Counted from the first letter of the stretch, positions 3,826-34,425 are shown. The stretch is 64,000 bases of DNA from Minisyncoccota bacterium (GCA_025453495.1 JALOQM010000001.1:155161-219160); one strand, 5' to 3'. Numbers and translations: made by a program. Notes: generated from the sequence alone by a model not told the origin.

Positions 3826-5076
3826 ATGCATGACCCGTATGCGGAATTTACTAAGCATGTTCTGAAAAATGGACTTGAAGTCCATTTTCAATCCTTGAAT
3901 TGTCCATGGATCAGAATAGAAATCGTCGTTCACAGTGGTGGACGAGAAGATCCAGTAGCGATACCTGGACTTGCTCACTTCGTAGAACACCTCGTTAGTC
4001 AAAATATTCCTAACAGAGAATTTAATCATGTAAGAGAGTTTTTTGAAAACTGCGGCGGTTCGGCTCATTTTGGTACCATAGACTATCTATCGACTCAATA
4101 TGGTTTCTTTATTCCAGCTGATCTCGCTATTCTCCGTGAGGTGCTCGAAATTTTTGGTTCAATGCTACTCCAAGCAAGAATTGAAAAGGACATTGAACGC
4201 GAGAGAGAAGTAATCTCACGTCAATTTAATGAAAAATATCCAATTGCCGAAATACTAGAGCTTCAAATAGATATGTACAGAACTCTCTTCAAAGGACATC
4301 GACTTGAAACATGGAATGCACCAATTGGTCGCCCGGAAGGATTTCTTTCGGCAACACAAGGTGACTTACAAAATTTCTACGATACACACTATGTTCCAGC
4401 AAATATGAGCCTAGTTATTATCAGTGGTATCAAAATTGCAGAGATGATAGCTGAACTTGAAAAGAGTCCGCTTGGAATCAAGAAAGATGGTAATCGGAAT
4501 CCAATTTCTAAGGGATGTAATAAGCCTTTAATTTCCGAGCAAAAAACAAGAACCCTAAAGTTTTCTGATTTTTCTAACCTTACGGTTAACCAAATAACAT
4601 ATAGAGTAACATGGGCTCTTCCACCTTCCTTTCACGGACAAGTCTGTAGAATTTTTAGTTTGGTTCTTGATGAGATTTTGTTTAGTGAAATTCGTGAAAA
4701 ACGAAGTCTTACCTACGATATCCATACTTCATATACGTCTTTTCAAGATATATACGAGTATACGATTGTTGGAAGAATTAATCCTGATGCCTCATCATAC
4801 ATTGAAGAACTTGTATATGAATGTATCTCGTTGGTTTCATCAAGACGTGAGTTATTTGATCGAAAATGTAAGTCACTCAAGCAGAGATGTTTTATGGTTG
4901 ATCTTGTTGGGTGGGAATTAGCTCGATTCGCAGCTGAAGATTTAATTGTCCGTCATCGAATTCTTCTAATACAGGAAGGTTTAGATGAATTGAATGGAGT
5001 GACATTTGACATGATTGTTGCATTTGCAACATTTCTTGCTTCTGCACCAAAGTACACATTTATCACGGTTCCATAA
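3826..5076 (+). CDS. M16 (pitrilysin/insulinase) family zinc peptidase
   Basis: HFVEHL inverted zinc-binding motif (HxxEH) near the N-terminus; 416 aa. Confidence 0.7.
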   Translation: MHDPYAEFTKHVLKNGLEVHFQSLNCPWIRIEIVVHSGGREDPVAIPGLAHFVEHLVSQNIPNREFNHVREFFENCGGSAHFGTIDYLSTQYGFFIPADLAILREVLEIFGSMLLQARIEKDIEREREVISRQFNEKYPIAEILELQIDMYRTLFKGHRLETWNAPIGRPEGFLSATQGDLQNFYDTHYVPANMSLVIISGIKIAEMIAELEKSPLGIKKDGNRNPISKGCNKPLISEQKTRTLKFSDFSNLTVNQITYRVTWALPPSFHGQVCRIFSLVLDEILFSEIREKRSLTYDIHTSYTSFQDIYEYTIVGRINPDASSYIEELVYECISLVSSRRELFDRKCKSLKQRCFMVDLVGWELARFAAEDLIVRHRILLIQEGLDELNGVTFDMIVAFATFLASAPKYTFITVP

Positions 5077-7032: not shown

Positions 7033-7185
7033 TTATTGGACCTCAATGCCATTATCACGCATGCCGGCGTCACTATCAGTTTTGGTTTGTGGGACAAAAG
7101 TATTTTTCTTCTGGTTACTTTTGACCATGACAACAGCGATAGCAAAGATGATAAAGAGTATAACAATGATTATTTTTTTGATCAT
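7033..7185 (-). CDS. Small membrane protein (about 50 aa), similar N-terminal anchor to 6590..6904
   Basis: Hand translation MIKKIIIVILFIIFAIAVVMVKSNQKKNTFVPQTKTDSDAGMRDNGIEVQ*; absent from the ORF track (too short). Confidence 0.25.
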   Translation of the reverse strand: MIKKIIIVILFIIFAIAVVMVKSNQKKNTFVPQTKTDSDAGMRDNGIEVQ

Positions 7186-7214
7186 GGTTTGATTATAGTC
7201 CTCTGGTATACTAT

Positions 7215-8363
7215 GTGTCTATGCAATCTGATATATATACTGCATCTGTAGAGCTGCATGCAAAACATGGCGGCAAGCTCGAAACAAAGAGCAAAATTCC
7301 GCTTACGACAAAAGAAGCACTTTCTTTGGCATATACGCCAGGTGTGGCGGAGGTATCACGACGAATCGCGACCGATCCGTCACTCGCTCGAAGCCTTACA
7401 CTAAAAGGCAATACAATTGCGGTGGTAACTGATGGCTCAGCGATTCTCGGACTTGGTGATCTCGGACCACTTGCTGCACTACCGGTCATGGAAGGGAAGG
7501 CTGCGATTTTCAAGGAATTTGGTGGCGTAGACGCATTTCCGATTTGTCTTACTACACAAGATCCCGAAGAGATTATTGCAATAGTTAAAAATATCGCGCC
7601 GACATTTGGTGGTATCAACCTCGAAGACATTTCCGCGCCAAAATGCTTCATGATTGAGGAGCGTCTACGTGCCGAACTTCCGATCCCTGTGATGCACGAT
7701 GATCAGTGGGGAGCAGCGACAGTCACACTTTCGGCACTTATTAATGCACTTTCGCTTCGCGGACTTACCAAAGAAGAAGCACGAGTGGTTGTAAATGGTG
7801 TCGGCGCTGCTGGTGTGGCTATTGGAAGACTCCTGCATGTGTACGGTATAGTGAATACTATTTTTTGTGACAGTAAAGGGATTATTCACGCTGGTCGTAG
7901 TGATCTCACAAAAGAAAAGAAAGAATTGCTAGATGGCAGCGCTCTTTTGCTAAGTGAAGGATCGCTTGCTGATGCACTAGCTGGTGCGCATGTATTCATC
8001 GGTGTTTCAAAGGCCGGTGCTCTTACTCAGGCTATGGTTCGCACAATGGCGCTGCACCCAATCATTTTCGGTCTTGCAAATCCGACGCCCGAGATCATGC
8101 CTGATGAGGCAAAGGCAGCTGGAGCATTTATTGTTGCGACTGGGCGATCTGATTTTCCAAACCAGATTAACAATTCGCTTGTATTTCCTGGGGCATTTCA
8201 AGGTATGCTTCGGGCTGGTATTCCTCAATTTTCAAATGCTGTCTTTATCAGAATTGCAGAAGCACTCGCGCGGTCTGTCAATACTCCTTCACCAGAAAAA
8301 ATTCTGCCATCAATGTTTGATGAAGGAGTCGTTGCGTTGGTGTCTGAGACAGTACAGGGATAG
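7215..8363 (+). CDS. NAD(P)-dependent malic enzyme (short bacterial form)
   Basis: 382 aa; ...LSLAYTPGVA...VVTDGSAILGLGDLG...FGGINLEDI... motifs; an NAD-binding GVGAAG is present. Confidence 0.9.
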   Translation: MSMQSDIYTASVELHAKHGGKLETKSKIPLTTKEALSLAYTPGVAEVSRRIATDPSLARSLTLKGNTIAVVTDGSAILGLGDLGPLAALPVMEGKAAIFKEFGGVDAFPICLTTQDPEEIIAIVKNIAPTFGGINLEDISAPKCFMIEERLRAELPIPVMHDDQWGAATVTLSALINALSLRGLTKEEARVVVNGVGAAGVAIGRLLHVYGIVNTIFCDSKGIIHAGRSDLTKEKKELLDGSALLLSEGSLADALAGAHVFIGVSKAGALTQAMVRTMALHPIIFGLANPTPEIMPDEAKAAGAFIVATGRSDFPNQINNSLVFPGAFQGMLRAGIPQFSNAVFIRIAEALARSVNTPSPEKILPSMFDEGVVALVSETVQG

Positions 8364-8416
8364 TGCATTACCATAGCACTGTTGACACATATAATCTCAA
8401 ATAGCACAATATAATT

Positions 8417-9290
8417 ATGAATCAAGAAGTTGCGCCGTATAGCACAGGAGTGCTGACCGCTACGCCGGAGGTACCTGAATCTCATACACAAGAAGCGTCA
8501 CTTATGCCGCAGCTGTGCTTACGACTCTTGCCTCAAAAGTAGTGAATATGACTCACGACTCGATACTCTTATAAGAAGCAGAGATGACACAGCAGCAAAA
8601 TTGGCTAGTGTTTGGCAAATGCTCAACCTGCCACCACTCACGGAGATACCACCGAGTCTCAAGCATATTGAAGGTAAGATACATGAGATCAACGAGGAAA
8701 AAGCAACATCGAGAAACGCACTCGTGAAATTATGGCACAAGAAGAGAAACAGGCGCTCGTTAGTATGGAAGAGACACGTCTTATCAATGAGGAGATCGCC
8801 CGATTAAGAAAAAAATTTCTTTCGCTTGATAGAGAGAGGTAGTCACTCATTCTTGCTACCGGACGTATCCCATCTGGTGTCGAGCTGATTCTCCCGCGGG
8901 AAATACAGATGTCTCAGACCGAACAGGTTAAGATGTTTATCACTTGCGTACTAGAAGAGGAGCCCATCACGGAAAAAGACATTGCGGATGAGTCGGAAAC
9001 ATTTCGAGCCATGGAAGTATCTGTACGGAAAACCACCGAAGAGAATGTCGATACTGTGGTTTCACGCCTTGAAGCAGGGTCATCGGATATATTGACGGAT
9101 ATCGCCGCGCGGTGCTTTGTGAAGTTGACGAACTGCTTATAGGCTGTGAAGGAGGAAGTTGTGCTCCCGAATCGTTTTTGCAGCGTATAGAAGAACAAAA
9201 TCAAGAAACAGAAAAAGCACAGTCTGCTACAGAACAAATTGTGCAGACGTATACTCCGAACACACAATCAAATTAATTTTTTTTTCAGCA
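8417..9290 (+). pseudogene. Degraded coding region: several short mutually out-of-frame ORFs
   Basis: Only 35-80-aa ORFs in three frames (e.g. 8601..8807, 8909..9142, and a 37-aa coiled-coil ORF at ~8731). Adjacent frames continue sensible peptide across stops. No intact gene in about 0.9 kb. Confidence 0.25.
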
Positions 9291-12440: not shown

Positions 12441-12544
12441 CTTTTGATTGGATATAGTGGGTTCAGTGCCAGAGTGGTGAGGTGCTGTAAGGGTATTTCA
12501 GGGAGTTTTTGTAAGTTGAAATGAGGTACATGGGTCGGGCTCCT
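12441..12544. repeat. Intergenic repeat, family A, copy 1
   Basis: ...GGGTTCAGTGCCAGAGTGGTGAGGTGCTGTAAGGGTATTTCAGGGAGTTTTTGTAAGTTGAAATGAGGTACATGGGTCGGG...; about 80% identical to the copies at 14236, 15590 and 16150. Confidence 0.7.
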
Positions 12545-12796
12545 TTATTTAGGAAACCAACGACACACGATATCAACAACCTCGATCAATTGAATTGCTG
12601 CAATTCCGACCCCGACCACTGTTAGCCAGAAAACTTTGTTTTGAAGCTTATCGTTCTTTTCGTTTGCTTCAGATATTGTCTGATTTAGTTTTCTTATGTC
12701 TGTTACAAGCAACTCAAGACGGTTGTTTGTTGTTGCTGCAAGGTCGCGATCTATTCCATTACCAGTATTTATGATGGGAAATTCATTATCAGCCAT
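12545..12796 (-). CDS. Hypothetical protein with C-terminal TM segment
   Basis: 83-aa ORF immediately followed by repeat A1. Confidence 0.35.
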   Translation of the reverse strand: MADNEFPIINTGNGIDRDLAATTNNRLELLVTDIRKLNQTISEANEKNDKLQNKVFWLTVVGVGIAAIQLIEVVDIVCRWFPK

Positions 12797-12799
12797 ATC

Positions 12800-13186
12800 C
12801 TATTCGGTGTCAGGAAATGTTCCTGTGTATTGGTTCCCAAAATCATCCATACAAGAAACTTTCCAATCATAGTAATCATAAGAGTAAATCGTATGCTTTT
12901 CCGAAGCACTTCTTGCATACGTAGTTTCACTACCGGGGATAGCTGCGTTACCGCCTATGTATGTCCAGATACATGTTGAAGAATTACCACTCGGGATGGA
13001 GAGCGAGTATCCCTCTTTGCCGTCATAAAAAGTACCCACCAGCACACCTGTTGCCTTAATGGTGGTATTGGTTTTTACATCAATAGTCGGATTTTTGCTC
13101 TGAGAATTTCCAAGCCAATAAGCTCCACCGCCAATAATTGCGATAACGATGAGTATTATCCAAATTTGTGAACCTCGATTTTCCAT
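12800..13186 (-). CDS. Hypothetical membrane-anchored protein
   Basis: 128 aa with an N-terminal TM (IWIILIVIAIIGGGAYWL); 3-nt gap to the downstream gene. Confidence 0.4.
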   Translation of the reverse strand: MENRGSQIWIILIVIAIIGGGAYWLGNSQSKNPTIDVKTNTTIKATGVLVGTFYDGKEGYSLSIPSGNSSTCIWTYIGGNAAIPGSETTYARSASEKHTIYSYDYYDWKVSCMDDFGNQYTGTFPDTE

Positions 13187-13189
13187 TGC

Positions 13190-13343
13190 CTAATTATAAC
13201 TTAAACCTACAAACTTAGGTACTCGGGGCATGCCGATAACAGATTCTTAGTGCGGAGAGCGTCGTGTTAGAACTAACCCCCGACAAGCCCAGTAAGGTCA
13301 TTTTAGCACTATTTCAGAATCTTAATCGACGCGTCTCGTGCGG
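13190..13343. repeat. Intergenic repeat, modules B plus C
   Basis: ACTCGGGGCATGCCGATAACAGATTCTTAGTGCGG matches module B at 15545. CCCCGACAAGCCCAGTAAGGTCATTTTAGCAC...GAATCTTAATCGAC matches module C at 17128. Confidence 0.6.
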
Positions 13344-14195
13344 CTAAGATACATCCTCAAAAGAATCGTAACAACTGCGACACAGCCGAGCAATGAGATC
13401 GGAAGCAACATATTTCCCTGGCATGTTTTCAATCATCTCCGGCACTTCAAATGTATAAACTGCAAGAATGAATAAAGGATGCTCACCTTTATAAACAATT
13501 CCAACATCATTGTATGCATTACTTCTTGTTCCTGTTTTGTGAGCAACTCTGGCTTCCACGGGCAGATGAAATGGTAACCGGTAATTGATTTGTTGCATAA
13601 GTAGAATTTTAAGTGCAAGATTGCACAATTCTGAATCAAGCCCTATATGAACCGCTTCCTTCTCGTCGATTGATCCTTTTAAGAACCAATGTATCATTGC
13701 TGCCGCTTCATTCGGGGTAGTGACATTGGTCGTTTCAACTCTTGCGGGAGTATGTGCGGATGCAGAAAGATTTCCATATCTTAACAAGGTCTGATTAAAA
13801 CCAAGAGATGTAATGTATTTATTCAGCCGATCTAATCCAATCATTTCAACAATCCCACCAGTACATGCATTATCGCTAATAGCTACCATGGCGACTAGCG
13901 CATCATGCAAAGATATGACGCATGCATTAGGATCGAAATAATGAAAAATTCCTGAATTGTTATCCTGGTATTTTTTCTGAATAAAGAAATGATCGGTCAG
14001 GTTCAGTTTTCCTGCTTTAATATCAGCAAGAACGCAGGCGAGTATGAAAATCTTTCTGGTGCTTGCGGAAGGCACAATCTCATCACCAAATCTATTGAAG
14101 AATCCTCCTGTCTGAAGATTAATAAACGAGAATCCTATATGGAACGGCTGTTCGTCACACAAGTCTTTCAGTCTCTGCTCAAGGGGTTTTTCCAT
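13344..14195 (-). CDS. Class A beta-lactamase-like serine hydrolase (PBP/beta-lactamase fold)
   Basis: 283 aa with STRKIF (SxxK), AISDNAC (SDN) and AHKTGT (KTG) motifs in the canonical order and spacing. Confidence 0.65.
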   Translation of the reverse strand: MEKPLEQRLKDLCDEQPFHIGFSFINLQTGGFFNRFGDEIVPSASTRKIFILACVLADIKAGKLNLTDHFFIQKKYQDNNSGIFHYFDPNACVISLHDALVAMVAISDNACTGGIVEMIGLDRLNKYITSLGFNQTLLRYGNLSASAHTPARVETTNVTTPNEAAAMIHWFLKGSIDEKEAVHIGLDSELCNLALKILLMQQINYRLPFHLPVEARVAHKTGTRSNAYNDVGIVYKGEHPLFILAVYTFEVPEMIENMPGKYVASDLIARLCRSCYDSFEDVS

Positions 14196-14235
14196 AGTGC
14201 TAATTATATCAGAGAAGCCTTGTTATAAGGACTTC

Positions 14236-14352
14236 GTGCTAGATGTTAGATGCGGGACACTCGGGTTAAGTACCAGAGTAGCGAGACACCGTAAGGGTAT
14301 TCTGGCAGAGTTTTGAGAACTGAAACGAGGTACATGGGTCGGGGTCTACTTT
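14236..14352. repeat. Intergenic repeat, family A, copy 2
   Basis: ACTCGGGTTAAGTACCAGAGTAGCGAGACACCGTAAGGGTATTCTGGCAGAGTTTTGAGAACTGAAACGAGGTACATGGGTCGGGG. Confidence 0.7.
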
Positions 14353-15486
14353 TCAATCTTGGTATATATCTGGAATGTTTTCACCCAAAAATGATTCTAC
14401 TAATAGTTTACCGATCATAATGCCATTAGTTAGCCCATTGCCACCATTTCCGAACAATTCATAATAGCCGTTTTGTTGCGTAATAAAAGGTCTGTTACGA
14501 GTTGGATATAGCAACAGCCCTGTCCATCGGTGCGAAACGGCAAGGTTCTCTTTAGAAGGATTTTGCACAAAAGCAAGGAATCGCTCTATTATTTTTTCTT
14601 CAGCATTCAGCAGGTCTTTTTCAGAAGGATTCAAGTTGATGCTTCCATTTAAGAATAAGCGGTTTCCAATCTTGCGGACAGCAATATAATTATTCCCCGT
14701 ATTCCAAAACATTCCACCTTTATCCCATGATAAGGCAGAAATATCTTCATCTGAAAGTGGCTCCGTAACAAGCGCAAGCTCTCTTTTAATGATTCCATAA
14801 TTTTCTGTAAGATCAGTTTTATTGCTTTCAATTGCAACAACTACTTTCTTTGCATGGATGATTCCATGAGGAGTTGTTACTGTGTGTACATCAAACGATA
14901 GTGCGGGAGTTTGCTCATATACCGAAAGACCTGCTTTTTCGGCAATTTCTGCAAGTCCCCGAACAAATTTGACCGGGTGTAAAGAACAGTCGTTTGCAAC
15001 AAGAAGAGTATCTTTTTTTGGTTCAAATTGAGGTATGATTTCTCCTATAAAATTCGCATGATGTCTTGCCTGTAGTTCGTCTTGCAGCGTTGATATATCC
15101 TGTGACTCCGAAGCAACATATAAACTTCCTGATCGAGAAAAATCACAAGCGATATTATTACTCTCTATTAAAGAAACAACATACTCTCTTGCATCTATAG
15201 TTCGCTGCCATGCTTCTATGGCTTGCTCTTTTCCGAACTGCTTTTCCGCTTCAACAAAATCAATCGCGAGACCTTCAACCACCATACCGCCATTTTTTCC
15301 TGCTGATCCCGATGCGATAACATCTCTTTCGATAAGTACGGTCTTGAATCCTGCTTTTACAGAATGATATGCGGCAGAAACCCCAGTTATTCCAGCACCG
15401 ATAACAACCACGTCTGTTTCTCTATCTTGTTTGAGAGATGGACGAGAAGTGTATGGGATATCAAGCCAATAGGAGATATTTTTCAT
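14353..15486 (-). CDS. FAD-dependent oxidoreductase (DAO/glycine oxidase-like)
   Basis: 377 aa; N-terminal VVVIGAGITGVSAAY Rossmann GxGxxG. Confidence 0.7.
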   Translation of the reverse strand: MKNISYWLDIPYTSRPSLKQDRETDVVVIGAGITGVSAAYHSVKAGFKTVLIERDVIASGSAGKNGGMVVEGLAIDFVEAEKQFGKEQAIEAWQRTIDAREYVVSLIESNNIACDFSRSGSLYVASESQDISTLQDELQARHHANFIGEIIPQFEPKKDTLLVANDCSLHPVKFVRGLAEIAEKAGLSVYEQTPALSFDVHTVTTPHGIIHAKKVVVAIESNKTDLTENYGIIKRELALVTEPLSDEDISALSWDKGGMFWNTGNNYIAVRKIGNRLFLNGSINLNPSEKDLLNAEEKIIERFLAFVQNPSKENLAVSHRWTGLLLYPTRNRPFITQQNGYYELFGNGGNGLTNGIMIGKLLVESFLGENIPDIYQD

Positions 15487-15499
15487 AAATTCATTTTAG

Positions 15500-15679
15500 C
15501 TTAAATCTCGATGTTTAGTAATCGGGTCGCCCCATCCACCTAACCACTCGGGTCATGCCGATAACAGGTTTTTAGTGCGGGCGACTCGGGTTCAGTACCA
15601 GAATGGTGAGGTGTTGTAAGGGTATTTTAGCGGAGTTTTGGAGATTAGAATGAGGTGTGTGGGTCGCTAATCGATTTCT
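15500..15679. repeat. Intergenic repeat, module B fused to family A copy 3
   Basis: AATCGGGTCGCC...CCACTCGGGTCATGCCGATAACAGGTTTTTAGTGCGGGCG (module B) then ACTCGGGTTCAGTACCAGAATGGTGAGGTGTTGTAAGGGTATTTTAGCGGAGTTTTGGAGATTAGAATGAGGTGTGTGGGTCGCTAATCG (module A). Confidence 0.7.
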
Positions 15680-16096
15680 TTAAAATTCGCGATATCTTGC
15701 GTTTCCCGGATGTCCGTACAGATGGATCAGTAATTCCTTATCTGAACCAAAATGTCCTTCAGTTAAGCTAACTTCTGACGTCTTTAAATCTGCTATGATC
15801 TTCTCTAGAACGATATGCGCATCTTTCGATACAGCAAGATTATTTGAGAGGTGAGCAAATGGACAAAGGAACACATTGTTATGTTTGGTGTCTTTACAGA
15901 ATTTAAGGATTTCCTGAGCAAGTTTAGAGGCCTTTTCAGGAGTATCACCCTTCTCAACCGTGATGAATACTAGAATACAATCATGAGAGGACTGCTTCTC
16001 ATCTAAAATATCTCCATACACAATATCTTTAGGACGAGTCGAGAGACCCGTGATAACGGCACCAAAATCTTTACAGTGAAACAAAATTGATCTCAT
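15680..16096 (-). CDS. Hypothetical protein (138 aa)
   Basis: An ORF between two repeats; no motif I can assign with confidence. Confidence 0.35.
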   Translation of the reverse strand: MRSILFHCKDFGAVITGLSTRPKDIVYGDILDEKQSSHDCILVFITVEKGDTPEKASKLAQEILKFCKDTKHNNVFLCPFAHLSNNLAVSKDAHIVLEKIIADLKTSEVSLTEGHFGSDKELLIHLYGHPGNARYREF

Positions 16097-16099
16097 TGG

Positions 16100-16253
16100 T
16101 TATTTACTGCCTAATCTTATTGCTTTAGGTATGTGGGTCTGCCCCACTTGGCGGGCCATGTGGGTTAAGTACCAGGGTGGTGAGTCCGCGTAAGGGTATT
16201 TGGAAAGGGTTTTGAGAATTGAAATGAGGTATGTGGGTCGGGGCACCTTTTAT
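16100..16253. repeat. Intergenic repeat, family A, copy 4 (with GGTATGTGGGTC at both ends)
   Basis: AGGTATGTGGGTCTGCCCCACTTGGCGGGCCATGTGGGTTAAGTACCAGGGTGGTGAGTCCGCGTAAGGGTATTTGGAAAGGGTTTTGAGAATTGAAATGAGGTATGTGGGTCGGGG. Confidence 0.7.
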
Positions 16254-17015
16254 TTATTGCATAAAATCACCAAACTTCACGATATCAGCTTTTGAGCCAA
16301 GAATATGAATCTTTTCTGGTGCTACTGTTAATTGACCGAAGGGTATATTTTCTACTCCAAATTTATTTACATAATTTTCAAGAAAAAAATCTCTTTCAGT
16401 TTCATTTTCCAGCTTAGCAATAACTTCTTCCTTAGAGAGTTTAGTATTTTTTAAGATTTCATTCAGACCTTGATTTTCAATATTTTCCCTCATTTTTTCT
16501 AATTGTTCAAATGAAAGTTTCTTGCCATCTTTATAACTATTTACATCGTAAAGTATTTGCAATAAAGCATCCTTGCCTTCCTTATACACTGATGATATAT
16601 CACTATGATTAATGCTTCCATCTTCAACAATTTGAATATTTCTCGTATTAACTAATACTGGAATTAATACTTTACCGTCTGATTCATAAGCATCATTCCC
16701 ATATGCGTTATATTTTCTTGCAAAAAATACAGCATTTCTTATAGAACAACCTTCTTTTTCTTTTGAGAAGCCATTAATTAATATGTTTTGAAGATTTTTA
16801 GCATCTGTTCCATGATATACAATATCTTTTATCTTGCTTTCAGGAAAAACAGTATCTAAGTATTCAGAATATTGTTCTTTAGTACCAATCTCAGCAAGTT
16901 CAGGATGTTGTTCAAATACGAAATCAACACCTTCTTTAATTTGAAGTTTCTCGATTTTGTTTTCGCCTGAATGCACATTTTCTATTTTTGGAATATTTTG
17001 AGGGAATCCTTCCAT
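16254..17015 (-). CDS. Hypothetical protein (253 aa)
   Basis: ORF with a Glu/Lys-rich C-terminal half; first gene of the same-strand array. Confidence 0.4.
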   Translation of the reverse strand: MEGFPQNIPKIENVHSGENKIEKLQIKEGVDFVFEQHPELAEIGTKEQYSEYLDTVFPESKIKDIVYHGTDAKNLQNILINGFSKEKEGCSIRNAVFFARKYNAYGNDAYESDGKVLIPVLVNTRNIQIVEDGSINHSDISSVYKEGKDALLQILYDVNSYKDGKKLSFEQLEKMRENIENQGLNEILKNTKLSKEEVIAKLENETERDFFLENYVNKFGVENIPFGQLTVAPEKIHILGSKADIVKFGDFMQ

Positions 17016-17039
17016 GCTTCTATTTTAACTTAAATATCT

Positions 17040-17205
17040 TTTTCTAAGTAATCGGGTCGATCTACTCTCATAAGCCTATGAATCACTCCGATACTTAGTT
17101 CTTTTGGCGGGCTACTCGGGTATGGTACCCCGACCGTCAACCCCAGTAAAGCTTTTCTGACGTTTCCGAATCGACCCGGGCGATGTTTGCGGGTCGGGGT
17201 CACCT
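17040..17205. repeat. Intergenic repeat, A-type start plus module C with an 8-bp inverted repeat
   Basis: AATCGGGTCGATC...GGCGGGCTACTCGGGTATGGTACCCCGACCGTCAACCCCAGTAAAGCTTTTCTGAC...GAATCGACCCGGGCGATGTTTGCGGGTCGGGGTC; CCCCGACC and GGTCGGGG flank about 45 nt. Confidence 0.6.
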
Positions 17206-17266
17206 TTTTGAAAATGAGACTTAGGCACAGATTTTCCCCGGATCAAATGCCAACAAATGCCAATTT

Positions 17267-18016
17267 TTGAGATATAATCAGGGCATGACAGTTGGCGAAT
17301 TGGTATATCTGGAAGCACTTAAGAATGGATACAAACCCAAACTTCCCGAGGGCGTTATTTCAACGTTACAAAAGACATTGGAATCATTTCAGAGGGTCTC
17401 CGAAGATATGCGCGGACCAATACAGATGGCAGCTCAAATGGCTGAGCGCATGCAACCGCAGATAGAAACCACGAGAAAGATGGCGTTTCCTAGAATGGCT
17501 GAGTTTAGTGAATCCATTTCTAGAATCTCTTCCCTCTATGACAAAGAGGAAGAATTCGTCATCCCCGCATTTACACGACCGATTCAAGAAGTACGAATCG
17601 TGAACCCCGAGGATATCGCTATAACATCGACCAAGAGTGAGAGAGATTTTGTAATTGCCTCATATCCTCTTCCGAAGAACGCGGTATGGGAATCCCTCGA
17701 CATCCAGTTCATCGATGGGCATTTCGTTAAGGTTTCGTATCCGAACTTGGAATCAAAGAAGTTCAATTATAAGGATATGGGCTTCGTGAACATGAAGACG
17801 ACGAACCCCGATCTGAAATGGAGACTCCTCTACGCAATTGCAGAAAACGACGGAGCTTTAACTACCACGAAATGGGATAGAGGGTTCGGAAGGAACGTAA
17901 AATACGAACTCAACGAGGGACTCAAGCGATTCTTCGGTATGGCGACGAACCCCATTCCTCACTACACCAAGAGAGATGGCTACAAGCCGCTATTTTCTAT
18001 CAGACGCGAAAGATAG
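17267..18016 (+). CDS. Hypothetical protein (249 aa)
   Basis: ORF with a TATAAT-like -10 just upstream (GAGATATAATCAGGGC ATG). Confidence 0.4.
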   Translation: MRYNQGMTVGELVYLEALKNGYKPKLPEGVISTLQKTLESFQRVSEDMRGPIQMAAQMAERMQPQIETTRKMAFPRMAEFSESISRISSLYDKEEEFVIPAFTRPIQEVRIVNPEDIAITSTKSERDFVIASYPLPKNAVWESLDIQFIDGHFVKVSYPNLESKKFNYKDMGFVNMKTTNPDLKWRLLYAIAENDGALTTTKWDRGFGRNVKYELNEGLKRFFGMATNPIPHYTKRDGYKPLFSIRRER

Positions 18017-18024
18017 TCATTTGA

Positions 18025-18160
18025 TTTGCAATGACGAATAAAAGACTTTCTGTCCATACAGGCAGAAGGTCTTTTATTTTATGGCCTATTCCGTCATTCA
18101 CACTCGCTCAATGAAAATAAATTGTCATTTTGTCATTCAATGACGAGTAGATATAGGAGA
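18025..18160. promoter_or_regulatory. Cluster of AATGACG / CGTCATT repeats including a GTCATTCAATGAC palindrome (candidate operator) upstream of the ParB-methyltransferase operon
   Basis: gcAATGACGaat, cCGTCATTcac, tGTCATTttGTCATTcAATGACgag within about 130 bp. Confidence 0.4.
18041..18080 (+). terminator. Rho-independent terminator after 17267..18016
   Basis: AAAGACTTTCTG-TCCATACAGG-CAGAAGGTCTTT followed by TATTTT. Confidence 0.55.
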
Positions 18161-18190
18161 GTTTAATAAAACCCTCTCCTCAATCAACAC

Positions 18191-19486
18191 ATGGCAAAAG
18201 ACAAGATCACATGGTCGCCCGCCACTCGCAGGCTGGTAGACCTCACCAAGAACGGATACAATCCACGCAAGCTAAGCGAGAACGAACGCAGGGATTTGGA
18301 GAAGTCCGTACAAGAATTCGGCACGGTCGTCCCGATAATCCTCAACATCGGCACGCGCGCCAACACCATCATTGGCGGCGAGCAACGCGTTAAAGTATAC
18401 GCCAATCTTGGCATCGACGAAGTCGAGTGCATGGTGCCATCCCGCGAGCTGACGCTCGACGAGGAGCGCGAACTCAATCTCCGCCTTAACAAGAATACCG
18501 GCTCGTGGGACGAGGAACTCCTCAAGGACTTCGACATGAGCGTGCTTCTTGGTGTCGGCTTCGGTGACGACGAGCTTCAGAACCTCTTTGACGATGTCGA
18601 CGTAGTCGATGACGACTACAATCTCGAGAAAGCACTCAAGGAGACGATCACACCGAAAGTGAAATCGGGAGAAATCTGGGAACTCGGCAAACACCGGTTG
18701 CTTGTCGGCGACTCGACCGACGGCGAATCGGTACAGAAGCTCATGGCGGGAGACTTGGCAGACGTCGTCTACTGCGATAGCCCGTACAACATCGGCCTCG
18801 ACTACTCCAAGGGAGTCAGCAATAAAGAAAAATACCAAGGTTCATATTCCAGCAAGGACGACTCCAAGAAAGACAGCGACTTCATGACCTTCTTGGACAA
18901 GAGCATGGATGTCGCGAAATCGGTCAGCAAGAAAGATGCCCACTTCTTCTACTGGTGCGATTCTTCATACGTCGGAATGGTGCAGAGCTTGTATGGCAAG
19001 CACAAGATAGATGCGAAGCGCGTCTGTCTCTGGATCAAGAACAACCAAAACCCGACGCACAAGATCGCCTTCAACAAAGTGTACGAGCCATGCGTGTATG
19101 GCACGATCGGCAAGCCGTACCTGAACACAGGAATGCACAATGCCAACGAGATACTTAATCAGGAAGTGACGACTGGCAATCAAGTCCATGACGAGATACT
19201 CGACATGATCGATATCTGGATCGAGAAGCGCGACAGTGCCCAGTCATATCAGCACCCGACACAGAAACCCGTAACCCTCAACGAGAAGCCACTCAAGCGA
19301 TGCAGCGCACCGCTCCACATTGTCTTTTCCGGATTTGCCGGAAGCGGCAGTGACCTGATCGCCTGCGAGGAACTCGGTCGTGCGTGGCGCGGAGTCGAGA
19401 AGGATCTCATATTCGCAACCATTGTGATCGACCGATGGGAGAAATTTACCAACCAGAAAGCAGTGAAAATCCATGAAGGTAACTAA
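18191..19486 (+). CDS. ParB-like nuclease N-terminal domain fused to an N4/N6 DNA methyltransferase (beta-class)
   Basis: 431 aa; N-terminal ParB/Srx-like segment (...GYNPRKLSENERRDLEKSVQEFG...); methyltransferase motif IV DSPYN, HPTQKP, and motif I FAGSGS; 55% GC versus about 40% in flanking DNA. Confidence 0.75.
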   Translation: MAKDKITWSPATRRLVDLTKNGYNPRKLSENERRDLEKSVQEFGTVVPIILNIGTRANTIIGGEQRVKVYANLGIDEVECMVPSRELTLDEERELNLRLNKNTGSWDEELLKDFDMSVLLGVGFGDDELQNLFDDVDVVDDDYNLEKALKETITPKVKSGEIWELGKHRLLVGDSTDGESVQKLMAGDLADVVYCDSPYNIGLDYSKGVSNKEKYQGSYSSKDDSKKDSDFMTFLDKSMDVAKSVSKKDAHFFYWCDSSYVGMVQSLYGKHKIDAKRVCLWIKNNQNPTHKIAFNKVYEPCVYGTIGKPYLNTGMHNANEILNQEVTTGNQVHDEILDMIDIWIEKRDSAQSYQHPTQKPVTLNEKPLKRCSAPLHIVFSGFAGSGSDLIACEELGRAWRGVEKDLIFATIVIDRWEKFTNQKAVKIHEGN

Positions 19487-20222
19487 CGGAGACATCTTCA
19501 AAGTCGGCGACCACATCATCGCCTGCGGCGACTCGCTCGACAGAGCATTCGTCGGCAAGGTCATCGGTCATAACAAGGTGCGAGCGGTCGTCAGTGATCC
19601 TCCCTATGGGATTGCGTATGTCGAGAACAAGCAGGGATTGGCGAAGATCAGCGCGGATGAAACGAAGGTAATCGCCAACGACCATCTCCAGAGTGAGGAG
19701 GAATACGAGAACTTCACGCGCGGATATCTCGGCGCGGTCATTCCGTACCTTACGGAATACAACGCCGTGTATATCTTCAATGCTGATGCAATGTTCCCGA
19801 GTCTTCGCGCAGGCATGAAAGTGGCGGGCTTCTACTACAGCCAGATGATCATCTGGCTCAAGAACCAGCCCGTCATGAGTCGCAAGGACTACTTGGCAAT
19901 GTACGAACTCATCGCCTACGGCTGGTTCGGCAAGCACAAGATGGAGCGATCAAAGGCGCGGAATGTGATCTACCATCCAAGACCGACAAAATCGAGACTG
20001 CACCCGACGCAAAAGCCGGTGGGACTTCTGCGGAAGATCATTCCGAACTCCACGAAAGTCGGCGACGTCGTCTACGATCCCTTCCTCGGAAGCGGATCAA
20101 CTGCCGTTGCCTGTGAGCACTTAGGTCGAAAGTGCATCGGCATCGAACTTGATGAGGCGTATGTGGCAATTGCGCTCAAGCGGCTCGAGAAGCTCACTGG
20201 CGAAAAGGCTGTGAAGGTATAA
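19473..20222 (+). CDS. DNA methyltransferase (N6-adenine/N4-cytosine, beta-class)
   Basis: 249 aa; SDPPYG (motif IV), HPTQKP, FLGSGST (motif I); overlaps the upstream gene by 14 nt. Confidence 0.8.
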   Translation: MKVTNGDIFKVGDHIIACGDSLDRAFVGKVIGHNKVRAVVSDPPYGIAYVENKQGLAKISADETKVIANDHLQSEEEYENFTRGYLGAVIPYLTEYNAVYIFNADAMFPSLRAGMKVAGFYYSQMIIWLKNQPVMSRKDYLAMYELIAYGWFGKHKMERSKARNVIYHPRPTKSRLHPTQKPVGLLRKIIPNSTKVGDVVYDPFLGSGSTAVACEHLGRKCIGIELDEAYVAIALKRLEKLTGEKAVKV

Positions 20223-20226
20223 CCGT

Positions 20227-20601
20227 ATGCAGGGAGACGATTTTTCCAAGGATCCGTACAAGAAGCAGGTCTACGAAACCTACGCTCTTTGGAAGTCCCT
20301 CCCGTCATTTCTCAAAGGACAGCCGAGAGTCGCGCTTGAGAAGTTTGGCATTGAAGAAGAAGCGGTGTTTGAGCTGCTCTCGATAAAGACACAGCTTGAT
20401 TTCTCAAAGCGATACAACGTCGATACGGGCACGCTCAGTGACTGGAACAAGCGACTTGAAAAAGACGGACTTTCCAAAGACCTGAATGCATGGGCGCGCA
20501 AGCTCACGCCGAACGTCATCTTCGCTCTCTACAAGAACATCATCAAAGGCGGCCGGGCGCATGAAGTGCGAGCGTGGTTTGAGATCGTAGAACATCACTA
20601 A
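20227..20601 (+). CDS. Hypothetical protein (124 aa), translationally coupled
   Basis: Starts 5 nt after the methyltransferase stop; no recognisable motif. Confidence 0.4.
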   Translation: MQGDDFSKDPYKKQVYETYALWKSLPSFLKGQPRVALEKFGIEEEAVFELLSIKTQLDFSKRYNVDTGTLSDWNKRLEKDGLSKDLNAWARKLTPNVIFALYKNIIKGGRAHEVRAWFEIVEHH

Positions 20602-20602
20602 C

Positions 20603-20800
20603 ATGGAACCAATACAACTTGAAGAAATAAATACCATTCTCTCGGACACCCTCCGCAAGGTCGTGAACCGGGAGATATCGCTCAAGCAAGCATCCATGAT
20701 TGCCAAGCTTGCGATGACGCTCTCGAGAAACATCGCCAATACCGAGCTGAAGGATCGGGTCGAATTCCTCGAAAGCATGCTGCAAAAAACACGCATATGA
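20603..20800 (+). CDS. Hypothetical small protein (65 aa)
   Basis: Coupled start/stop with both neighbours. Confidence 0.35.
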   Translation: MEPIQLEEINTILSDTLRKVVNREISLKQASMIAKLAMTLSRNIANTELKDRVEFLESMLQKTRI

Positions 20801-22284
20801 AAAATCTGAATAACATTATTAAGAGATCGAACCTGACGCCGCTTGAGCGAGTTACCATGCTTGTCCATAACGGAGAGCATAGGCAGAAAACGGGTAAAGA
20901 TATGCTCTCGGAAGCAGAACTCAACACCCTCACCCAAGGATGGGCGGCTCGGCTCGGGCAAGCGAATGAATACAATAAATACTTGGAGATTGCTAAGCTT
21001 GAGAACTCGATGCGGATCGATGCGACGATGTTCTCATACCGCGCGGAGCTATCCTTGGTCAGGCATCAGCGATTGCTTTCGTACTGCCTGACCGAGCCGG
21101 AGCGAATGAAAAAATTGATCAATGACGACATAATGGATGGACTCGAGGAAGAAGAGTGTTTGCGGTTCGCGCTCGCTCACACATATCTCGAGTACGGCTC
21201 TGTGTTGCACCTTTTCACTTTCTTCAATCTCCCGAGAGAGATACGAGAGGATCTCGCTCTTTTGGATGACTCTGTTGCGTACAGCAATCAATATCTAGGT
21301 GATGAAGTACAGCTTTATGAAATGTTCAATGCCAGAAAGGTCAATAATGAAGACAAAGATACACTCGTCGACATCATCTTCTCGCGCATATACTACGAAG
21401 GCATCAACAAAATGCGCGGTGAAGGCACTGAGCGGGACGCTTTTATCCTTGGTGGCTACTTTGCGGAATTTCCGCTGAGCGAAGCGATATACAAAACTGC
21501 TCGTGATCTAGGTATCAAGTGTAAGAACCGGGATGAGGAGGAAATATTGGATGATATTGAGTCGTATGCCAAGGAAAAAGCCGTGACTATGGAGCATCTG
21601 ATCAAGGAATCACTGCGCTCGTGGCTTGATGATGGACTATTCACTAAGCAGTTTGCGCCAATCTTCATGAATGGTGGTTTCGATACAGTAAACGGCATTA
21701 CCAGGAAGAACCACAAAAAACTGTTTGAGATTTGGTATGCGGAGCTAGAAAAATCCAAGAGATATTTCAATACTCTTTTCCGTATGCAGAAACTTAAACG
21801 AGAAGAAGCAGAAATAACCGTCCTTGGAGAAACAAAAACTGTAGAGAAACTCACTGGGGAAAGTTTGTATACATGCCAAGAGGATTTGGAATTTGTACGA
21901 GAATACAAAAAGCAAGTCTATATGATTCTGCCGTTTTCAAATCTCGCTTTGTTTATTGAGAAGCATACCAAGCCAATCCAGAAGTACACGACGCTCTGTC
22001 AGTTTAGGAAGCTCGGGAAGAGAGCATCGGATACCTTTGATGCTAATTTCACGGAAGAATATGACAAGCTTATTGAGTCGTATCGGGAAGAAATGACGCT
22101 TCTCAATCACGAACTTGCGAAGTTGACCGATGTGGCAACTGAACATCTATCTGCAAAAGCCGAGGAAGATTTCAGATGCGCTATTCAGATCTGGAACGGC
22201 AGTTTTCGTTTTGATCTCAGAGAAGCCGACGACAAAGCCGACATTATTGAGAAGTATGAGAGGGATTTCAGGAAGGTTATGTAG
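20797..22284 (+). CDS. Hypothetical protein (495 aa), last gene of the methyltransferase operon
   Basis: ATGA overlap with the upstream ORF; no Walker A or other motif identified. Confidence 0.45.
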   Translation: MKNLNNIIKRSNLTPLERVTMLVHNGEHRQKTGKDMLSEAELNTLTQGWAARLGQANEYNKYLEIAKLENSMRIDATMFSYRAELSLVRHQRLLSYCLTEPERMKKLINDDIMDGLEEEECLRFALAHTYLEYGSVLHLFTFFNLPREIREDLALLDDSVAYSNQYLGDEVQLYEMFNARKVNNEDKDTLVDIIFSRIYYEGINKMRGEGTERDAFILGGYFAEFPLSEAIYKTARDLGIKCKNRDEEEILDDIESYAKEKAVTMEHLIKESLRSWLDDGLFTKQFAPIFMNGGFDTVNGITRKNHKKLFEIWYAELEKSKRYFNTLFRMQKLKREEAEITVLGETKTVEKLTGESLYTCQEDLEFVREYKKQVYMILPFSNLALFIEKHTKPIQKYTTLCQFRKLGKRASDTFDANFTEEYDKLIESYREEMTLLNHELAKLTDVATEHLSAKAEEDFRCAIQIWNGSFRFDLREADDKADIIEKYERDFRKVM

Positions 22285-22295
22285 AATCCAGATTC

Positions 22296-22715
22296 TTATC
22301 CAATTACAATATTTTCTCCATTACCAAATTCCATTTCTTTATACATAATCTCGCCTGATTCATTCTTCTTATAAGGAAGTGTGGCGGAAATTACTTTATT
22401 TTCAGCATCCTCCAGATGAATAGAAATTGCACCATCAGTATTTCCTGCATATAGATTCGCATTAAAAGCAATACCGAAAGCATGTAAATCATGTTCTTGC
22501 TTTTTTACTTGGAAACTCTGCATGAGAGAATCAATGACTTCTTTTGGGGTGGGATGTTTTTCTAAAAAATCATTTTCAACGGCAACTATTTCATCTTTTG
22601 AGTTTAAATACATACCGAACGGATAAAATTCACCATGTTGGATTAGCATTTTCTGAGCAAAAGGAACTAGAGCGTTTAGTAACTTATCAAGTTGTGTGCG
22701 TTCTTTTTCATTCAT
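22296..22715 (-). CDS. Candidate immunity protein for the RHS toxin
   Basis: 139-aa ORF overlapping the stop of the 2042-aa toxin gene by 4 nt, the typical toxin/immunity arrangement. Confidence 0.45.
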   Translation of the reverse strand: MNEKERTQLDKLLNALVPFAQKMLIQHGEFYPFGMYLNSKDEIVAVENDFLEKHPTPKEVIDSLMQSFQVKKQEHDLHAFGIAFNANLYAGNTDGAISIHLEDAENKVISATLPYKKNESGEIMYKEMEFGNGENIVIG

Positions 22716-22718
22716 GTT

Positions 22719-25700
22719 TTATTCACTTGTGCCAGAAAGGGCATTACCAATATTTTTCAATGTCGACTTTACACCTCCTAATGCGTTTTGCAAAGGGCCT
22801 GAGAGACGAGTATCCGGGCGAACGTGTAAATCAAGACTATAGTTTGCGTCTTTCGCATAACTTACAAAATCTTTCATTTGGTTTGTGTAATTCAGACGTG
22901 CAACATTTTTAACTTCCATGAGAGATTTTTTTGAGTGATCCAATCCATCGGGTATACGATAGCTAGCAGTTCCAGTAGCGGATTCTATTCTTTCAGTATT
23001 TTTTACAATACCGCTGGCAAGTTCGCCCGCTCTTCCTTTCGCTGCATTTTCGGCAATATCACCTAATACTTTACCTTTTGGCACTTCTCCTGCGGTAACA
23101 GCGCCAAGTATTGCCATAGGATAGTTTCCTTGCTTTGCATCAGTAATAGCTTGAGAAAGTCCGTATTGGCCAACAGGCGTTGTAAGTGATTGCAAGAATG
23201 ATGTAATTTGTGGAGCATTCATTGCGATATACGCCGCAGCAAAAATAAGTTCTCCTGCAAATTTACCACTTGCATCGCTCATCGTAATCGGATTATTCCT
23301 TCCGTATGAATAGCTGTTCAGTGACTGCGGATCGCTCAGGATACTCGTCATATCCCTGCCCGACAGTGCTTTTGTCGGTTTTTCGTCACCAATAGTTAAA
23401 AATACCGGATCCTGAGAAATAAACTTCCCAACATTCCCCTTGTAGTAACGCGCATTCAAGTAATCGAGTCCTGTATCGTTGTCATGAATCTGCCCCACAT
23501 ACTTTCTCTGTTCATTATACGCCCCAGACGAGATGCGGGATTCGCCGAATGGGTAATAATCGAGTTGCTGAGAAATTGCACCTGAGGCGTCAGTGACGGC
23601 GGTAGTTGAACCGAGGTGATCGGTATGGATATAATACGGCGTCACTGTGACCGTCGGATTAGTAACAGTTTCGATCGTGGCGACAAGGGTGCTTCCTGCA
23701 TAGACTTGCTTGGTCTTCTTCGTACCGTCATCGTTGTAATACTTGTTCGGGTATGAGATGTCAGTCGTGCCTGTAACATAGCGGACGCGGTTACCTTCGT
23801 GGTCGTACCAGTAGTTTGCGGTCACTGAGCCGTCAGTACTCGAAACAAGCTGATCGCGGTAGTTCCAGGTATGCGTGAACGTGCCGTCTGACGTCAGATT
23901 GCCGTCATTGTCGTACGTGCGAGTAATACTGTTAATTTTTGTCGCAGCATGCGGATTCGCATACCCGGTGCCGGCATAGACGTATGCGCCCGCTGGACCA
24001 GAGAGCAGATTGCCGAGCGCATCGTAAGCGAATGAATGCGTGTAGTCACCGCCGCTTGCCGTGCCGGTAATGACAGCGTCAGTCAGACGATAGAGTGCGT
24101 CATATGAATACGTAGCGGTCTTTGCAGTATCAGTATCGGATGCATCATCAAGTTCGGTGATATTGCCGACCGGATCATACACATATGCGAAATCCTGCAC
24201 ATGACGGGTCGAATTCGTCGTCAAACGATTGGTTAGGCGGTAGAGCGCTGAAGCAGCATAGGTGTTCATCGTCGTCACGCCGTTCGCATCATTCTGCGTC
24301 TGGACCTGATCCGTCGGACTGTAGTCGAAGTTAGTAATGAGCGCAGTGAACGTGCGCGCAGACGGTTCCCTACGATCAACTGATTCGAGCAAACCGGCAG
24401 TATTGTAGGTGTAGCGAATCTCGGACATATCGGGATAGACGACTGAGGATATATTCCCCTGTCGATCGTAGAACGTGGACGTCGTATAGGTGTTTCCGTT
24501 GATGACCTTGATTTCGTTGACGACCGTGCCTCTCGAATTGTAGAGGTAGGATGTGTCCGCTCCGAGAAGCATGGTCACTGAGCAGAGTTTGCCCGTACCA
24601 TTCGTGCAGCTTGAGTACGAATACGCAATATCCGTGTCGGTGGTTGCAGTGTTGTCTTCCGAAGTGACCTGATTGACGTCGTTATAGGCGTAGTTTGTCG
24701 TCAGTGCGTTCGGACTTACTGTCTGAATAATGTTTCCTGCATCGTCATACGTATATGTCCATATGCCATAGGTTGCATCAGACACAGCGTGCGTGTCTTG
24801 CGCAGTCAGACGACGATCGAGGCCGTCATACGTGAAATTGCGGACGTTCCCGAGCGCATCGGTTATCTTCGTAAGTTTGCCGTTCAAATTCCATTCGTAG
24901 TTCGTGGTATAAGCGCTTGCAGTCGCATAGAATTCGTCGACAGCGGACAAGTTCTCATATGCGTCGTGATAATAACGCTTCATGTTTCCTGCTGGATCAG
25001 TGACAGTGGTCATCCAGTCGTCGTAGGCATTCGTCGTCGTACCAACTGCGTTCGTCGATGTGAGTACGCGACCAATTGGGTCATATGCGTACGTAGTGTA
25101 GAGCGCCGTAGTGGTTGTCGGTGATGTACGAGCAGTACCCGTGCTTGTATAGCGGAGTGATTCTTTCAAGGTCTTGCCGCGAGCATCATATGCCTTATCG
25201 CTCACGTTGAAAGTATTTGATGCTTCCGCTTCTTTGCGCTCCTGGATCAGGCGACCGAGGCCGTCGAAGTACTGATAGGTATCTGCCGTTGTCGAGGTGT
25301 CGAGATAGTCGGTGCGCTGTACTTTTACCGCACCGGAAGTGTCGGTATATGCATATGCCGTTTTTGCAACTGGAGAATACGGTGAAGTACTATCGGGAAT
25401 TTTTTCAGTGAGCACGCGATCAAGGCCGTCATAAACAGTTTGGTAGACGAAGCTGTTCTGATCGGTCACCTGCTTCGGCTTGCCGAGCGAGTAGTCATAG
25501 ACATACTGCGTCGTATGTGAGAGCGGGTCGGTAACAGTTGTTGGGTAGAGATTATAGGTATCGTATGAATACGAGGTTACCTTTCCACGCGGATCGGTAT
25601 CAGAAGTGACAAGACCATATGAGTTATACGCTTTCTGACTATTAATGTAGGTTGTCGACGCTTTCCAATCTTCAACCTTAGTCTGATTACCTTTGTTTAC

Positions 25701-29765: not shown

Positions 29766-29767
29766 GG

Positions 29768-34420: not shown

Positions 34421-34425
34421 AGTTT

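Follow-up and report, generated by a model that had tools for sequence, protein, structure and literature searches.

The 64,000-nucleotide stretch of Minisyncoccota bacterium DNA that was analysed here (GCA_025453495.1, JALOQM010000001.1:155161-219160; the window in the following) contains, at positions 12,441 to 17,266, an array of small minus-strand genes with a repeat of about 95 nt, which is called the element. The elements are probably the 3'-terminal attachment segments of site-specific integrative units that occur across the Patescibacteria, including cassettes that would be mobilised by a large serine recombinase (LSR). The boundaries of the units, their tRNA targets, presence/absence polymorphisms between genomes, and two ends that are common to a large island and the small cassettes were observed. 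The arrangement in the window is a tandem accretion behind a tRNA-Ser(tga) gene. The array is the distal part of this accretion, and the tRNA gene lies 20 kb away, a context that could not be seen in the first-pass annotation of the DNA.

Repeat family, unit anatomy and breakpoints

A repeat search of the window revealed a 93-nt plus-strand family of four copies (12448-12540, 14252-14344, 15577-15669, and 16151-16243), which were 67-80% identical to the reference copy, and a 35-nt pair with 91% identity (13221-13255 and 15546-15580), which had previously been termed module B. The existence of the family was confirmed with an nhmmer profile of the four copies, which was searched against the whole window. 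The strong copies had E-values of 1e-24 to 1e-27, and two additional matches, both weak, were found at 17107-17209 and 13282-13344, equivalent to the former module C. With a profile of 17 copies they rose to E = 2e-4 and 6e-3, respectively. No further element copies were found with the four-copy profile in the rest of the window. A six-way alignment revealed that the six intergenic pieces have one scaffold in common. The six elements, four strong and two divergent, span 12447-17201. Five of them begin just past a minus-strand stop codon, and the sixth, E0 (17107-17201), has no gene upstream. The six minus-strand genes are present as annotated, but a repeat does not separate every pair. The open reading frames (ORFs) 12800-13186 and 12545-12796 are 3 nt apart, with no repeat between them, and the array therefore consists of five cassettes, one of which has two ORFs. 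The GC content of the cassettes ranges from 29.5% to 41%.

A unit begins at its 5' end with module B, which takes up about 65 nt. One or two ORFs come next, with a -10-like TAnAAT box 6-7 nt ahead of the ATG, and the element of about 95 nt, which starts 1-25 nt past the stop codon, finishes as a mimic of a tRNA 3' terminus (...ACCC-N6-7-CCGC[CA]). All five cassettes of the window are built from module B or a short B-like leader, a TAnAAT box, the ORF(s), and one element. CCGC marks the boundaries of every unit. This bounding direct repeat is only 4 nt long, and the copy of the tRNA 3' segment at the distal unit end (CCGC[CA]) is much shorter than usual for tRNA-targeting elements. Module B, which reads A[C/A]NAAGAAC-YTRNTATCGGNRT-GACCCRNRTRCC... 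in gene sense, is the 5' end of each unit. Its profile has exactly four matches in the window, three after elements and one after tRNA-Ser(tga) at 36957. The last 26 or so nucleotides of the element resemble the T-loop-to-acceptor end of a tRNA, and one copy ends with 14 of 14 nt of a real tRNA-Ser 3' end. In a second type of copy, to which E0 belongs, a T-arm-like hairpin is followed by 7 nt, G, and CCA. In E0 the hairpin is TCGGG/CCCGA, GTAGCCC-G-CCA follows, and the CCGC end is at 17107-17110; an identical arrangement is found at the island end in L028 and L031-L039 (L numbers denote the loci analysed). Around the junction the conserved region is about 170 nt long; about 100 nt of it precede CCGC and 65 nt follow it. 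The TAnAAT box, often inside TTAAGCTAAAAT, precedes the ATGs at 17015, 15486, 14195, and 13186 of the window at a distance of 6-7 nt, and it is likewise present before the cassette starts of L005, L010, L011, L012, L014, and L033. A Shine-Dalgarno sequence is absent from the start codons with such a box, and this combination suggests that the cassette mRNAs are self-promoted and leaderless.

The breakpoints were localised by comparisons of junctions. In the window, the 3' end of tRNA-Ser(tga), CTCCGC, is directly followed by ATTGACAACCTGTTAG..., the beginning of the island. The first cassette begins directly past a same-strand tRNA-Ser gene in L005, L006, and L010, and in L011 a cassette is located directly past a tRNA-Trp gene, where ...GCCCGC is followed by ACTAAGAACC (junction ...ATCGCCCGC). 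The tRNA genes at these junctions are intact according to ARAGORN and Rfam, and module B follows immediately; it is found after tRNA ends and after element ends alike. Two polymorphisms were especially informative. L005 and L019 are otherwise identical, with a tRNA-Ser gene in the one and an element in the other at the same spot, and identity resumes at CCGCCAAGAGAAC. In L009, tRNA-Ser(gct) is joined to a flank, and in L013 a cassette with its element is joined to the same flank, at CCGCCA. Therefore, the tRNA 3' end and the element 3' end are interchangeable left partners of one junction, and the breakpoint is at or within CCGC. The unit boundaries are at CCGC both in the polymorphisms and at the island ends. 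The first-pass interpretation is partly supported: the array is cassette-like, the repeats are functional and not debris of a duplication, and recombination sites had been its leading candidate.

The accretion in the window reads, in gene sense, tRNA-Ser(tga) (37044→36957), module B, the island (17107-36956), E0, the five cassettes (12447-17106), and the chromosomal flank at about 12447. Synteny analysis revealed that the interval from the malic-enzyme gene to tRNA-Ser/RuvX is 3.5 kb long in L010 versus 28.6 kb in the window, which fits an insertion. The most distal element, E5, has lost CCGC, as expected if it is the oldest one.

The element is not restricted to the window. A 21-base core pattern matched in 11 metagenome-assembled genomes (MAGs) of Saccharibacteria, Paceibacterota, and Minisyncoccia, a longer 28-base pattern matched in 7 metagenome contigs, and a 20-base core pattern was absent from the viral contigs searched. 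In the MAGs of the three groups the element is about 80% conserved, always behind varied ORFs. L002 is a locus 100% identical to the window. The window itself is part of a JGI metagenome contig of 211 kb, and its best protein matches indicate Patescibacteria of the Paceibacteria type. Over all fetched loci, 38 distinct copies were obtained, and same-strand ORF ends were nearby in 28 of them; for clean type-1 copies the distance from the ORF end to the element was 1-25 nt. Arrays of two or three copies were detected with the 17-copy profile in L010, L012, L015, L016, L019, and L020. The ORFs before the elements are diverse, and most have no Pfam match. One 230-aa gene with its element was found in three genomes with unrelated flanks, with 83-88% amino-acid identity, showing that gene plus element moves as a unit.

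Some further features were observed around the tRNA targets. Past the terminator after the last cassette, an inverted 17-18-nt copy of the genome's own tRNA-Ser 3' end (e.g., TTCGAATCCCACCGCTTC) is present in L004 (~3064), L005 (~2831), L006 (~3338), L012 (~877), L016 (~1122), and L008 (~1498), with a GC-rich stretch next to it; it is absent from the window. It may be the remnant of an LSR gene end that overlapped the tRNA gene in antisense, as in L014/L018. In addition, tRNA-Ser genes with the unusual anticodon ACT (ACU) are located beside cassettes or an LSR gene at L009 3111-3200 and L014 8101-8188. One of the two has its own TTGACC...TATAAT promoter, and these genes may be element-borne.

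Features of the accretion in gene-sense order, from the tRNA gene to the chromosomal flank
Feature	Position	Strand	Evidence or remark
tRNA-Ser(tga), proposed integration target	36957-37044	-	ARAGORN and Rfam; 3' end ...CTCCGC at 36957
Module B, tRNA-proximal island end	36897-36956	-	B profile match 36960-36897, E = 1.4e-11; homologous to L023 island end
LSR, Resolvase + Recombinase + Zn_ribbon_recom	32107-33438	+	Pfam
LOOT RNA (RF03000)	30446-30571	-	Rfam; conserved island component
Distal island gene block	17267-22284	+	Pfam, PHROGs
E0, type-2 element (former module C)	17107-17201	-	distal terminus of LSR island
Module B, 5' end of cassette 1	17046-17106	-	B profile match 17110-17046, E = 1.4e-13
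Cassette 1 ORF, 253 aa, weak ADP-ribosyltransferase (ART)-like match, 29.5% GC	16254-17015	-	
E1, type-1 element, ends ...CATGGCCCGC	16151-16245	-	
Cassette 2 ORF, 138 aa, free-standing ThrRS editing domain / Ser-tRNA(Thr) hydrolase-like	15680-16096	-	
E2, type-1 element, ends ...GAGTCGCCCGC	15577-15669	-	
Module B, 5' end of cassette 3	15516-15576	-	B profile match 15580-15516, E = 7.5e-16
Cassette 3 ORF, 377 aa, DAO-family FAD oxidoreductase	14353-15486	-	
E3, type-1 element, ends ...GAGTGTCCCGC	14252-14346	-	
Cassette 4 ORF, 283 aa, class A beta-lactamase family	13344-14195	-	
E4, divergent element, ends ...GCTCTCCGC	13252-13343	-	
Module B, 5' end of cassette 5	13192-13251	-	B profile match 13255-13192, E = 2.4e-15
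Cassette 5, two hypothetical ORFs: 12800-13186 (128 aa) and 12545-12796 (83 aa)	12545-13186	-	
E5, last (distal) type-1 element	12447-12541	-	decayed terminus ...CACTATATCCAATCA in place of ...CCGC
Chromosomal flank past array	at ~12447		sequence AATCAAAAGAAG

With respect to the cassette genes, the translation of the cassette 4 ORF contains the SxxK, SDN, and KTG motifs, and its scores are below the NCBIfam cut-offs. The ThrRS editing domain of cassette 2 is of the archaeal type, and it is carried by an element that targets tRNA-Ser genes.

The serine-recombinase island

The ends of the island are module B and an element, and thus it has exactly the two ends of each small cassette. Its cargo in the window is, in order, LexA, a metallo-beta-lactamase (MBL)-fold protein, the LSR, LOOT RNA, an RHS toxin, and the block from the 495-aa to the 249-aa gene. 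The LSR is the sole recombinase that was recognised between tRNA-Ser(tga) and the array, and no tyrosine recombinase was annotated among the called genes of the window from ~3.7 to 56 kb (no Phage_integrase-type domain). The LSR translation has the N-terminal catalytic serine motif YARKSTESEERQ. Its best NCBIfam match is CcrB with 123 bits versus a cut-off of 900, a score so far under the cut-off that the LSR is not a Ccr orthologue. More than 120 clusters of homologous proteins with 75-95% identity were found in Patescibacteria.

Islands of this kind are widespread and have sizes of 8-20 kb; the copy in the window is about 19.9 kb long. One LSR island of about 15.2 kb was present as the same block in at least eight contigs. 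It encodes a 250-aa protein, a ParB_N-methylase, a methylase, 124-aa, 64-aa, and 495-aa proteins, further proteins, the LSR, an SNF2 helicase, and a 159-aa protein. On its LSR side it adjoins five different tRNA-Ser genes, two of them with the anticodon gga and the others with cga, gct, and tga. There, the sequence common to the copies starts with module B right after CTCCGC, and the other end carries a type-2 element. In a second variant of the island, the terminus ...GAGTACACCGC was identical in nine contigs, and at least four unrelated flanks are located next to it; among these flanks is a cassette that has a module B and an element of its own. An LSR gene near a junction of tRNA-Ser and module B was also found in L049/L050 and L051. 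A more distantly related LSR gene, with 33-37% identity, directly abuts or overlaps a convergent tRNA-Ser gene in L014 and L018.

LOOT RNA was also detected at L031 9924-10044 and at 6640-6772 of L023 and L028. In the window and in these three loci it is always located just upstream of a conserved gene of 205-226 aa, near the LSR gene, which suggests that this orphan motif has a cis-regulatory role inside a mobile island. The distal block contains genes for a 243-249-aa protein, a ParB_N-N6_N4 methylase (18191-19486), a methylase (19473-20222), and 124-aa, 65-aa, and 495-aa proteins, and the gene order is kept in L012, L016, L023-L032, L040, and L049. Two of these proteins were considered as possible recombinases. 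The 495-aa protein (20797-22284, plus strand) has a confident, mostly helical AlphaFold model (pLDDT 88.8, pTM 0.80), and as a candidate for a hidden recombinase it was rejected, with no significant fold match in PDB or BFVD; the model may represent a new fold. The 243-249-aa protein at the head of the array was tried as an integrase; Pfam, PHROGs, and PDB yielded no match. For the head proteins of L012/L015 (297 aa) and L016 (201 aa), none was obtained with Pfam or PHROGs, and homology between the three kinds of head proteins was not detectable.

Several further features were noted. In the window, a gene for a 2042-aa RHS/YD-repeat toxin (SpvB, TEN_YD-shell, Tox-REase-7) and a putative 139-aa immunity gene are located on the minus strand at 22296-28847, between the 495-aa and 267-aa genes, where other island copies have no such genes. 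A decayed fragment of a second LSR (44733-44855, minus strand) has 61% amino-acid identity to residues 409-449 of the intact LSR. L015 contains an IS3-family transposase pair (HTH_Tnp_1 + rve; 3290-4361) in the slot of the ParB-methylase, beside the 297-aa head gene. A pair resembling a diversity-generating retroelement (bAvd and a reverse transcriptase fragment; 7163-8609) is present in L051, within another LSR island, at tRNA-Ser(gct).

Proposed integration mechanism and rival explanations

The following mechanism is proposed. The CCGC at the end of tRNA-Ser genes, and of at least one tRNA-Trp gene, would serve as the integration site. A unit that integrates there would leave a new ...CCGC terminus downstream, and new arrivals would enter beside the tRNA, with the consequence that the units would pile up in tandem. 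The island LSR would catalyse the exchange within CCGC, and it would also mobilise the non-autonomous cassettes, which have no recombinase, in trans, with parallels in SCC elements, CIMEs, and tycheposons (see below). Integration by the LSR is inferred from the following observations: it is the sole recombinase recognised in the island, no tyrosine recombinase was annotated in the section given above, and the core is only 4 nt long. Serine recombinases have a crossover of 2 nt and tyrosine recombinases an overlap of 6-8 nt; thus, the 4-nt bounding repeat fits a serine recombinase better than a tyrosine recombinase. A 2-bp LSR crossover at the CCGC sites would also be in accordance with the 4-nt shared core and the linkage of the genes.

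A more far-reaching version has roughly an even chance of being right. It states that Patescibacteria have an integron-like capture system built on a serine recombinase, in which cassettes with att regions of about 170 nt, the end of which mimics a tRNA 3' terminus, would be captured serially at the CCGC of tRNA-Ser/Trp genes, and would be supplied and mobilised in trans by a highly conserved, promiscuous island with LSR, ParB-methylase, and LOOT RNA that crosses class borders. The cassettes of this system would be single-gene, self-promoted, and probably leaderless. The long att region with GACCC repeats would imply an accessory factor or a non-canonical serine-integrase synapse that re-uses the tRNA-proximal hybrid site.

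Several points weigh against the LSR-mobilised units as the source of the repeats. Recombination was not directly observed, and excised circular junctions were not found. The att sites of classical serine integrases are about 40-50 bp long, and attP is not recombined with attL by these enzymes. In the present units, about 170 nt are conserved, with four or five GACCC(R)N(R)T(R)CC motifs in the same orientation, a pattern more reminiscent of tyrosine-integrase arm sites, and the proposed mechanism does not account for conservation of this length. Repeated insertion proximal to the tRNA would require an enzyme that accepts a hybrid site of tRNA and module B. Furthermore, a compact island variant (L031/L032) and the LSR locus L053 have no tRNA gene on the LSR side. 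Many cassette loci were covered only in 8-kb pieces, so that an LSR elsewhere in those genomes may have escaped detection, and much of the data are from MAGs and metagenome contigs.

The conservation beyond the approximately 30 nt that a serine recombinase needs would be explained if the element acted mainly at the RNA level, as a C-rich, G-poor, unstructured 3' untranslated region, e.g., as a tract for Rho utilisation (rut) or insulation, or as a tRNA-3'-end mimic that signals processing. The base composition of the sense strand (33.5% C and 15.6% G on average, versus about 18% C and 21% G in ORFs) and the start of the elements 1-25 nt past stop codons are in line with such a function. No intrinsic terminators were found between the cassettes at the thresholds used in a promoter/terminator scan of the window, which was uninformative there, and in other genomes terminator hairpins follow the last element copy. 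However, a rut site does not need block-wise primary-sequence conservation of about 80% across classes, E0 has no upstream gene, and the breakpoints at CCGC would be left unaccounted for. A conserved structure was not found either. A weak, G·U-rich antisense fold that was obtained with four copies was gone with 25 copies (RNAalifold consensus -0.49 kcal/mol), no compensatory pairs were present in the 25-copy consensus, and the gene-sense strand is unstructured. The covariation analysis that the first-pass annotation had proposed gave a score of 0.176, below the shuffle mean of 0.195, and 468 of 500 shuffles scored at least as high (named-structure test). Rfam had no match in the array at the gathering or the E-value threshold. 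The structured-RNA candidate was thus dropped, and a mainly RNA-level element is regarded as unlikely. It would be compatible with a role as an att site, and an added role in termination or insulation, based on the C-rich, G-poor mRNA strand, is a speculation. Two other candidates were rejected. One is a hidden coding region or a peptide made by read-through: the one sense frame that most copies keep open is interrupted by stops in several, the variability has no 3-nt periodicity (0.61 / 0.70 / 0.57), and the phase varies with respect to the upstream stop codon. The other is a degenerate tRNA-Ser that comprises the whole element: the likeness is limited to the last 14-26 nt or so.

Competence has been described in Patescibacteria, and the approximately 100 nt that are conserved on each cassette side could serve as anchors for cassette exchange by homologous recombination between elements and tRNA genes after natural transformation. 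This is quite improbable, because an identical island is found beside at least four unrelated distal flanks and five different tRNA-Ser genes, and homology stops within the 4-6-nt core at both island ends, so that on the flank side there is no stretch in which a homologous exchange could take place. Same-strand, unrelated cassettes, each with a 3' site, are also the hallmark by which an integron or a cluster of attC sites lacking an integron-integrase (CALIN) might be suspected, in which the repeats would be attC sites recombined by IntI as folded single strands, and some copies contain GTTAAGT, which fits GTTRRRY. Yet the DNA folds of the six copies are no better than shuffles (z = -0.87 to +0.62), and there is no inverted-repeat architecture. 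The GTT[A/C]AGT heptamer is misplaced about 20 nt inside the element, it is GTTCAGT in most copies, and the boundaries are at CCGC instead. Together with the cassettes' own -10 boxes and the lack of an annotated tyrosine recombinase in the window from ~3.7 to 56 kb, this makes an integron extremely improbable, in agreement with the earlier statement that the element is not a canonical attC. Just as improbable is a miniature inverted-repeat transposable element (MITE), a repetitive extragenic palindromic (REP)-like selfish repeat, or a recent local tandem duplication, to which the confinement of the approximately 100-nt intergenic repeat to one locus within the window might point. Terminal inverted repeats, target duplications, and any inverted-repeat pair across the element are absent, and the position and strand relative to the stop codons are fixed. 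The flanking genes are unrelated, which shows that the array is not a duplication, and the family is located at tRNA 3' ends in many genomes. Attachment segments of integrative units remain the preferred explanation.

Significance and relation to known systems

The genomes of CPR (candidate phyla radiation)/Patescibacteria are tiny, and only a few routes of gene flow are characterised for these bacteria. The locus points to a route by which they may acquire accessory genes singly. The tRNA 3' CCGC would be its landing pad, the cassettes have a set anatomy, and the candidate enzyme shows 75-95% conservation across classes. Among the genes seen here are beta-lactamase-family and ART-like genes, methylases, a Shedu-like defence gene, and a mechanosensitive channel gene. 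If the proposal is true, a compact serine integrase that targets tRNA ends and a marker for hypervariable CPR regions might become available, and the orphan LOOT RNA motif would have a genomic context.

Literature searches yielded no description of such a cassette system, but there are similarities to several known ones. The staphylococcal cassette chromosome (SCC) elements (SCCmec and composite SCC, with Ccr LSRs) share the use of an LSR, with CcrB as the best NCBIfam match here, the integration at the very 3' terminus of a conserved housekeeping gene, which stays intact, short bounding direct repeats, tandem accretion, and units with the same ends that have no recombinase. In contrast to the rlmH target of SCC, the target here is the CCGC terminus of tRNA-Ser/tRNA-Trp in Patescibacteria. 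In addition, most units consist of one self-promoted gene and measure 0.6-1.3 kb, the conserved ends are much longer (about 100 + 65 nt), and the window LSR is far below the Ccr cut-offs.

Integration into tRNA genes, with newer elements pushing older ones deeper, is also typical for tycheposons of Prochlorococcus and Islander-type tDNA islands (bioRxiv 10.1101/2020.12.28.424599). Tycheposons have, furthermore, partial tRNA-like sequences that mark old boundaries, and cargo-carrying as well as degenerate units. However, 910 of 937 elements use tyrosine recombinases and a minority large serine recombinases (bioRxiv 10.1101/2020.12.28.424599). Their partial-tRNA repeats are sizeable, whereas here the core is only CCGC and the element of about 95 nt is not a tRNA fragment. 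That study describes nothing equivalent to a regular array of single-gene cassettes in which each gene has a conserved end.

Integrons and CALINs also have same-strand, unrelated small cassettes with a 3' site each, proximal insertion, and cassettes that are common to several genomes. They differ by the attC hairpin, the GTTRRRY boundary, and IntI, all of which are missing here, by landing at attI and not at a tRNA 3' end, and in that the cassettes described here have their own -10 boxes. The last example is the accretion-mobilisation of streptococcal cis-mobilizable elements (CIMEs) and ICESt-type elements, in which non-autonomous att-bounded units are located beside an autonomous element and are presumably mobilised in trans. 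In contrast to the present system, tyrosine integrases are used, the units are multi-kb, the hosts are Firmicutes, and single-gene arrays are not formed.

Taken together, the system is conceptually a variant of tRNA-targeted tandem accretion and of SCC-like LSR cassettes, with an unusually integron-like, regular array. It appears to be an integron-like arrangement for gene capture that uses a different machinery.

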